The notes beneath the pieces are model-generated. The model had not been told where the DNA came from. It made no database searches and saw only the letters and a program-made list of their open reading frames with translations. Position numbers and translations under genes: made by a program. From a virus (Duplodnaviria; Heunggongvirae; Uroviricota; Caudoviricetes), in IMG/VR virus record IMGVR_UViG_2660238230_000002: DNA of 4,167 bases; one strand, written 5' to 3'. This document shows, in pieces, positions 1,350 through 4,167 of this stretch. Position 1 is the stretch's first letter. Each line of letters starts with the position of its first letter.

Positions 1350-1441
1350 CTAAACAACAGACCGAGAAAGACACTGAAGTTCAAAACACCGAAAGAGATA
1401 ATTGAAAGGGGTGTTGCATTGACAGATTGAATCTACAACAG

Positions 1442-1648
1442 GCCCGCTGGCAGGATGTCTGGCAGCTCTTGCCGGTGGTGGTCACTGCAGTCCCTGTCGT
1501 GTTACTGCTGGCGAATCAACTGAACCTGCTCAACCTCAGCGACAGCACCGCCCATACGCTGGGAGTGAACCTGACGAGGCTACGTTTGGTCATCAATATG
1601 TTAGTGCTGCTTCTGGTTGGTGCGTGCGTCAGCGTGGCAGGTCCGGTC
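1442..1648 (+). pseudogene. Internal fragment (about 70 aa) of a FecCD-family iron-siderophore/citrate ABC permease, possibly fecC-like; no native start or stop
   Basis: [69 protein letters not shown] carries the characteristic FecCD motif (L-x-L-G/S-D-x-x-A-x-x-LG ... hydrophobic helix ... AGPI/V) seen in FepD, FepG, FecD and BtuC. It sits in the middle of ORF 1427-1972. The frame opens only at 1406 after a TGA, and the upstream 1350-1440 is AT-rich and non-coding in appearance. Confidence 0.6.
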
Positions 1649-1878
1649 ACCCGCGATCGCCTGCTGGCATTTCTCGATCAAGAGATGTCAGATTCTCTCT
1701 CCTATCACTTCTGGAACAGTGGCGTAGGGATTCGTCCCAACGAAGAGGACGAGAAGATCGAAGGCTGTGACGATGGTGTGATCATGCATCTGAAGTCGGG
1801 TAAAAAACTGAAAGCTGACTGCCTGCTCTATGCCAACGGTCGCACCGGTAATACCGATTCGCTGGCGTTACAGAACAT
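1649..1878 (+). pseudogene. sthA: Internal fragment (about 76 aa) of soluble pyridine nucleotide transhydrogenase SthA/UdhA, fused in frame to the permease fragment
   Basis: [76 protein letters not shown] matches the central region of E. coli SthA nearly residue for residue as I recall it. Similarity stops at about 1878, after which the frame reads [17 protein letters not shown]... and ends at TGA 1970-1972. Confidence 0.8.
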
Positions 1879-2162
1879 GGAAAACGCGTCGAGCCAGTGG
1901 TTCCGCAGTCCACCGAGCAGGGCTGGTATATCGACAAATCACGCTTTGATTTCCATATCGATCCGGTGCTGAACCAGTCGGTCGGTGGAACGCACTGGAC
2001 TGCCAGCGCACGCTGCCGCTTTACCTGCAAGCCAGCTTGCTGCCGAAAGCCGAACGTGGCGAACTGGTCGCAAAAGCCATTGATGTCTTCCCGCAGTTTG
2101 TCCGTTTCCCGAATACGCTGGAAGAAGTGGCGGCGCTGGAGAGTATTGAAGAGTGCTGGTAA
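1879..2162 (+). pseudogene. Unidentified coding fragment or fragments; the downstream part is a C-terminal gene end with a TAA stop at 2160-2162
   Basis: One frame is open from 1950 to 2159 and reads [70 protein letters not shown] then stop. A second frame is protein-like across 1864-1990 ([33 protein letters not shown]). This is either one gene tail with a frameshift or two separate pieces. I do not recognise the product. Confidence 0.3.
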
Positions 2163-2411
2163 GATGGTCAGCGTGTCGCCGCGCCGCAGCTGCCGCACAT
2201 CATCAGTCCGGACAAACAGGGACGGGCTGGAGCCTTCAACGCGCACGCCCTGTCCGGCATAGCTGATATTTTCAGGGTCATCAAAAACACCACGTATCAC
2301 AGCACCGGACTGCTCACCGGATGTCATGGTGGCTGACGTTCCCATGTACCCGCGTATCGTTTCATCGGCGCAGGCAATGGCAGCATCGAACAGGTTATCG
2401 AAATCAGCCAC
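2163..2411 (-). pseudogene. FII: Lambda-type head-tail joining protein FII, N-terminal 83 codons only (3'-truncated), GTG start at 2409-2411
   Basis: The minus-strand translation MADFDNLFDAAIACADETIRGYMGTSATMTSGEQSGAVIRGVFDDPENISYAGQGVRVEGSSPSLFVRTDDVRQLRRGDTLTI matches lambda gpFII. Similarity ends exactly at 2163, and the 209-aa ORF 1782-2411 continues as antisense read-through of the neighbouring fragment. Confidence 0.85.
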
Positions 2412-2422
2412 AGCGCCTCCCG

Positions 2423-2818
2423 TTATTGCATTCTGGCCAGGCCGCGCGCTGTCATTTCGGCTGCCACACCGGCAGAGACACGGAACGCCGTTCCCGGCAG
2501 CACAAATGCCACAGCCTCATCCCGCGTGGCGTGAAGTGCATCAGTATGCAGCGTCACCAGTGCCACAACCGTGACCAGAGCAGCCGTATCAGTCACGGTA
2601 TCCGTCTGTGCTGATACCACCTCATTTTCATGTCCGGTCAGTGCATTTTCCGGGCTGACAGACGTGTCCTGACCGGCTGCGTCATCCGTGTCATCAAGCT
2701 CCTCTTCCAGCTCTGCCACACGGAGCGCCAGTTCTTCTTTCGTCCCCGTCAGGCTGACATCACGGTTCAGTTGCTCACCCAGCGACCGGAGACGGGCAAT
2801 CAGTTCATCTTTCGTCAT
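2423..2818 (-). CDS. FI: Lambda-type DNA-packaging protein FI, apparently full length (131 aa plus stop)
   Basis: MTKDELIARLRSLGEQLNRDVSLTGTKEELALRVAELEEELDD...HTDALHATRDEAVAFVLPGTAFRVSAGVAAEMTARGLARMQ matches lambda gpFI. The ATG is at 2816-2818 on the minus strand. The 11-bp gap to the FII start and 41-bp gap from the E stop match the spacing I recall for lambda. The track ORF 2423-2857 over-extends by 13 codons upstream. Confidence 0.88.
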   Translation of the reverse strand: MTKDELIARLRSLGEQLNRDVSLTGTKEELALRVAELEEELDDTDDAAGQDTSVSPENALTGHENEVVSAQTDTVTDTAALVTVVALVTLHTDALHATRDEAVAFVLPGTAFRVSAGVAAEMTARGLARMQ

Positions 2819-2859
2819 GAACTCCTCCACAGAGAGAAAATGGCCCCGAAGGGCCACGA

Positions 2860-3836
<977 letters not shown>

Positions 3837-4022
3837 TACGGCTGTCGGTTTACGTTTACGTTTTATTTATTCGGGTTCTTTAGTTTTCTATTTTTAACTC
3901 TTTTGTGTTGAGAAGCAGCCGTGTTTATTCATTTTGTCAACAGACAGGGGCGAAATCTTCTGGTGAATATAAAAGACATCAGTTTCGTTGTTCAGAAAGG
4001 CATTTTTTGTGAGATTCATATC

Positions 4023-4167
4023 AGCGCGCAAATTTCCTGTGCCATGCCCTACACCTACGGCAGTAATGATGGCAACAGCACCACGGATATTGAAAACAGC
4101 AAGCTGGTCGTGATGTTTGGTAACAACCCGGCAGAAACCCGCATGAGCGGCGGTGGCATCACTTATC
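4023..4167 (+). pseudogene. Internal fragment of a DMSO-reductase-family molybdoenzyme catalytic subunit (DmsA/YnfE/YnfF-like), running off the window end
   Basis: SAQISCAMPYTYGSNDGNSTTDIENSKLVVMFGNNPAETRMSGGGITY parallels the DmsA segment SAQIAEGLNYTYGGWADGNSPSDIENSKLVVLFGNNPGETRMSGGGVTYY. The in-frame sequence upstream (FCEIHI...) has no similarity and lies in AT-rich DNA, so the gene is not entered from its native 5' region. Confidence 0.6.

Follow-up and report, generated by a model that had tools for sequence, protein, structure and literature searches.

An in-frame fecC–sthA open reading frame is very probably an accidental frame in a chimeric draft contig

An open reading frame of 181 codons at positions 1427-1972 (+ strand, TTG start) runs from FecC permease sequence into sequence of the transhydrogenase SthA without a change of frame. 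Such a frame could represent a new fusion protein, a remnant of recombination in the cell, or an accident of how the sequence was put together. The initial annotation had interpreted it as an artefactual fusion or a product of recombination rather than a bifunctional protein, and the frame itself is present exactly as it was described there. The window, i.e. the whole 4,167-bp stretch of DNA that was analysed, corresponds to the entire record CDRN01001806.1 of assembly GCA_000944855.1, except for three ambiguous positions. Base-by-base comparison revealed that the deposited record has an N at 1282, inside an IS5 element, and NN at 2161-2162, where the window has A, the ambiguous bases having been swapped for A during window preparation. 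The two Ns at 2161-2162 lie exactly on the joint between a yphG fragment and a block of phage genes, which is the only joint with Ns. The assembly is a highly fragmented draft, its contig numbering implying at least 1806 contigs. A literature search for CDRN01, GCA_000944855 and neighbouring WGS prefixes returned nothing usable on GCA_000944855.1; the LINKS paper (PMC4524009) cites the neighbouring GCA_000944835, an Illumina assembly of S. Typhi that has no bearing on GCA_000944855.1.

To define the composition of the open reading frame, the native fecC, sthA, yphG and yjbH loci of strain M217 were used for alignments and for comparing positions. Aligned separately, the two halves each matched their own gene, as the initial annotation had anticipated. 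Local BLAST against the native loci placed the DNA breakpoint between fecC and sthA at 1647/1648. The position originally given, 1648/1649, is the next codon boundary, and the codon GTC at 1646-1648 in fact straddles the joint, with GT contributed by fecC and C by sthA. The in-frame passage itself was confirmed, since each gene keeps its native frame (position 1 of the fecC codons coincides with position 1 of the open reading frame, and sthA position 3 with position 3). The encoded peptide proceeds from FecC residues 192-260 to SthA residues 207-282 and then to a frameshifted yjbH tail. Its first five codons, including the TTG start, derive from the right end of an IS30 element and the adjoining flank. 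At the other end, a 2-nt filler, GG (1879-1880), which according to the junction alignments belongs to neither neighbouring gene, is followed by the last 30 codons, which are made of yjbH sequence (1881-1972) out of register, with position 3 of the native codons at position 2 of the open reading frame. Because yjbH is read out of frame, these last 30 residues (ending in SIRC) are nonsense, and the stop codon at 1970-1972 sits within the yjbH piece. As a single blunt junction preserves the frame with a chance of 1 in 3, the in-frame reading across fecC and sthA is no more than chance would give.

The out-of-frame yjbH tail and the patchwork character of the whole window go beyond the initial annotation. 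When adjacent segments were compared with reference genomes, they mapped to non-adjacent loci and strands, and the contig resolved into at least 12 pieces, from loci that lie megabases apart in the reference genome. From the left, a ttdA fragment (1-116, - strand, 100% identical) is butt-joined to 38 nt of left flank and a complete IS5 (117-1349 together, + strand; IS5 itself at 155-1349). The flank-IS5 junction (117-170) is present in 802 E. coli genomes. The four nucleotides beside IS5 are unlike, CTCC on the left (151-154) versus CTAA on the right (1350-1353), and comparison of these 4-nt flanks gave no target-site duplication around the element. The two flanks come from different places, which would reflect either the assembly collapse of several IS5 copies or recombination between copies. 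IS5 is followed by the right end of IS30 with about 5 nt of IS911-type flank (1350-1441, + strand, 100% identical to L008 2501-2592); this piece runs about 5 nt beyond the IS30 end before fecC begins.

The pieces that make up the open reading frame and its surroundings are short. In blastn and megablast searches of 5,426 complete E. coli genomes, the fecC match covered 1439-1647 at 99.5% identity and was mismatch-free from 1442; the three bases at 1439-1441 fit the IS30/IS911 piece (100% over 1350-1441) better than fecC. The fecC fragment thus extends over 1442-1647 (+ strand; codons 192-260 of 332, native frame) with 0 mismatches to L001. It is succeeded by the sthA fragment (1648-1878, + strand; residues 207-282 of 466, 98.7% identical), which spans position 3 of codon 206 to position 2 of codon 283 in its native frame, and, beyond the GG filler, by a yjbH fragment that starts from codon 401 (1881-1988, + strand, 100% identical) and a yphG fragment (1989-2160, + strand; codons 687-745 of 1093, 100% identical). 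The yjbH and yphG pieces share a single nucleotide, the G at 1988. The M217 coordinates of these four genes are 4.125 Mb for fecC, 4.508 Mb for sthA, 1.285 Mb for yphG and, on the opposite strand, 4.430 Mb for yjbH.

To the right of the two ambiguous bases at 2161-2162, the contig continues with lambdoid head genes on the - strand (2163-3229), comprising the 5' part of an FII-type head-tail joining gene, FI, and the 3' part of the major capsid gene, which are 96.5-97.3% identical to prophages and lambda-like phages. The capsid fragment is butt-joined to the 3' part of IS100 istB, which starts mid-gene and extends to the IS100 end (3230-3834, + strand). The istB frame itself (3230-3767, + strand) has its 5' end cut off by the blunt joint at 3229/3230 and represents the C-terminal part of IstB only. 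Between the IS100 end and the last piece lies an AT-rich stretch (3835-4021) with no close match; for 3870-4024, the best identity was about 85%, to a rare unannotated or hypothetical locus present in 88 of the 5,426 E. coli genomes, mostly on plasmids. The last piece, a fragment of a ynfE-like DMSO/selenate reductase A subunit gene (4022-4167, + strand, 97.3%), runs off the contig end. Across the contig, fragments of single-copy genes measure 92-231 nt each and multi-copy elements 605-1233 nt. A second chimeric open reading frame, of 209 aa on the - strand (1782-2411), is called as a gene in the public annotation; its N-terminus is a lambdoid head-tail attachment protein (Pfam Phage_attach, residues 8-84), and it continues antisense through the yphG, yjbH and sthA pieces.

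Inspection of the joints revealed how these pieces meet. The joints fall mid-codon and are blunt, with 0-1 nt shared, or carry a 2-nt filler. Coincidence with an IS terminus is limited to 155 and 1349, where IS5 begins and ends, and to 3834, where IS100 ends; the fecC/sthA, sthA/yjbH, yjbH/yphG, yphG/phage and capsid/istB joints lie inside genes and away from IS ends, which is not what IS-mediated rearrangement, with its breakpoints at IS termini, predicts. Microhomology at the fecC/sthA junction, which the initial annotation had proposed looking for, was absent, the joint being blunt, and with 0-1 nt shared at the joints microhomology-mediated recombination is unsupported. Ligation at restriction sites, as in a 3C/Hi-C or Sau3AI library, was rejected, as no site is common to the joints: the fecC breakpoint has a CCGG 2 nt to its left, and native sthA has its GATC upstream of the breakpoint, in the part that was not retained.

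We then asked whether the joined pieces occur together elsewhere. Across the 5,426 complete genomes of E. coli, no place covers more than 35% of 1340-2000, which corresponds to one piece, or more than 37% of 1860-2330, again one piece. Since the best places cover one piece each, fecC and sthA, sthA and yjbH, yjbH and yphG, and yphG and the phage genes are unjoined in all 5,426 genomes. Plasmid records likewise contain none that joins the pieces (fecC to sthA, yjbH to yphG). A 34-mer spanning the fecC/sthA joint was absent from species-representative genomes and JGI metagenome contigs, a 29-mer over the sthA-GG-yjbH joint from species-representative genomes, and a 31-mer over yjbH/yphG from JGI metagenome contigs. 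Every junction tested was unique to this contig. At the protein level, an exact look-up of the 181-aa sequence gave no match, because the public gene call begins at an internal TTG (P0001, 1469-1972, 167 aa). In a homology search of 5.8 billion protein clusters, P0001 was the only protein to cover both halves; it is 99% identical and has one member from one 4167-bp contig, which is CDRN01001806.1 itself. All other matches reached at most 54% of the query and were FecC-like or SthA-like proteins or fragments. A protein family with the same domain order, which the initial annotation had named as a finding that would overturn its reading, is thus not found: the sole protein spanning FecCD and then Pyr_redox_2 comes from this very record, and no E. 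coli genome or plasmid joins the pieces.

Irrespective of its origin, the open reading frame lacks what either parent protein needs. The earlier statement that neither half retains its essential parts is borne out by Pfam searches and motif positions. The first half gave a partial FecCD match (residues 2-74; profile positions 169-241 of 311), whereas native FecC matches the profile at residues 18-330 (profile positions 2-311). This segment matches E. coli fecC codons 192-260 at 100% identity and is in frame, but comprises 69 of the 332 FecC residues and two hydrophobic stretches, as compared to about nine in native FecC. It does not contain the complete transmembrane core of FecCD (PF01032) and could not form a permease. 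The second half gave a partial Pyr_redox_2 match (residues 75-149; profile positions 173-245 of 291). In native SthA (UdhA; soluble Si-specific NAD(P)+ transhydrogenase, a class I pyridine nucleotide-disulfide oxidoreductase), Pyr_redox_2 occupies 7-326 and the dimerisation domain PF02852 occupies 346-457, with GxGxxG motifs located at residues 13 and 183. As the fragment begins at residue 207, both the FAD-binding motif (residues 13-18) and the NAD(P)-binding motif (residues 183-188) are missing, the latter being upstream of the breakpoint; the fragment (76 of 466 residues) stops at 282, and PF02852 had no match in the open reading frame. A promoter scan of 1200-2200 returned 0 sigma-70-like sites. 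A hybrid promoter contributed by the IS30 end was considered and rejected: the TTGACA at 1419-1424 has no -10-like hexamer 16-18 nt downstream, and the scan gave no site.

Sequence quality added a further observation. Ordinary E. coli sequences match the ttdA, IS30, fecC, yjbH and yphG pieces base for base. The exception among the single-copy pieces is sthA, with three transversions in 21 nt, T>G at 1728, A>C at 1737 and T>G at 1748, all of them radical non-synonymous changes (V233G, H236P and Y240D). All three are missing from the 5,426 E. coli genomes, where the piece is matched at 98.7% at best, and the chance that three random substitutions in 231 nt cluster this tightly is about 0.02. Substitutions of the types A>C and T>G are characteristic errors of short reads. 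The three changes are probably uncorrected read errors in a thinly covered stretch, a lead that fits thin coverage but falls short of proof.

Taken together, we consider it very probable that the open reading frame is no gene but an accidental open frame in a contig that arose as a chimera during library preparation or assembly. With unrelated pieces strung together along its whole length and one joint marked by ambiguous bases, the contig fits such a chimera better than recombination in the cell, and we infer that the joints were made outside the cell. Short, unrelated E. coli fragments would have been placed end to end; the joint at 1647/1648 would by its 1-in-3 chance have kept the frames of fecC and sthA in register, the next joint would have shifted the frame, and the open reading frame would end 30 codons later in yjbH, an accidental frame across three joints of the contig. 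An overlap or de Bruijn assembler will normally connect two pieces only where they have sequence in common; for a blunt joint, the template molecules must have been chimeric or a scaffolding or gap-closing step must have been involved. The chimeric joints may accordingly have arisen by co-ligation of short fragments during library construction. Alternatively, tiny contigs of low coverage may have been scaffolded and gap-filled spuriously, which would explain why the single-copy pieces are about read-sized and the repeats longer. The contig resembles other chimeric or misassembled draft contigs in being a short one among more than 1,800, in having breakpoints between loci that are never adjacent, in carrying ambiguous bases both at one of its joints and within a collapsed repeat, and in the uniqueness of its junctions and open reading frames. 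It is unlike a pure overlap or de Bruijn misjoin in that most of its joints are blunt, with neither Ns nor a shared k-mer. Counting against an artefact, the ends of IS5 and of IS100 in the contig are true IS termini, and the joints at these ends could be real IS insertions in the sequenced strain.

These same genuine IS ends, together with the flank-IS5 junction shared by 802 genomes and the perfect sequence of most pieces, are what an origin in the strain itself would build on: repeated illegitimate recombination of an end-joining type, or fragment capture between IS elements and prophage, would have produced a real junk region, and the open reading frame would be a functionless pseudogene mosaic. 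Gene remnants are indeed known from IS-rich genomes of E. coli and Shigella, and the contig resembles such IS-bounded pseudogene remnants in that IS5, IS30 and IS100 flank gene fragments. It differs from them, however, in that its critical joints lie away from IS ends, with at least six blunt joints in a row, none of them at an IS end, connecting pieces of about 100-230 nt whose loci are separated by megabases. Ku/LigD end-joining is, to our knowledge, missing from E. coli, as is any process by which fragments would be strung together through blunt joints. As no other genome shows the joints either, their absence extending over the 5,426 complete genomes, plasmids and the other collections scanned, we regard a real junk region as unlikely; the NN at one joint and the resemblance of the sthA substitutions to sequencing errors also argue against it. 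Less probable still is a genuine patchwork in which many 100-230-nt fragments were joined blunt end to blunt end in a chromothripsis-like or fragment-capture event, in a bacterium without canonical NHEJ, with the fecC-sthA frame as a by-product. Such joints, if real, would point to an unknown multi-fragment end-joining in E. coli, which nothing here supports. Finally, a functional fusion, in which a FecC-derived membrane anchor tethers the SthA fragment, can be excluded for practical purposes: although the halves are in frame and the two N-terminal hydrophobic stretches could span a membrane, the product would have only part 
of SthA (76 of 466 residues, with neither GxGxxG motif and without the dimerisation domain) and 69 of the 332 residues of FecC, would carry three radical substitutions in its SthA piece and 30 C-terminal residues of out-of-frame yjbH, has neither an ATG start nor a promoter-like site, and finds no second example among 5.8 billion protein clusters.

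The reading of the initial annotation, a fusion artefact or recombination product, therefore agrees with the partial halves, the blunt joint and the lack of a second example, and the open reading frame is non-functional as a gene whether the contig is chimeric or a real junk region. Its biological significance is essentially nil. The practical lesson is that chimeric contigs of fragmented public assemblies seed databases with one-off "fusion" proteins such as P0001, with its two Pfam domains, which can be mistaken for novel domain architectures.
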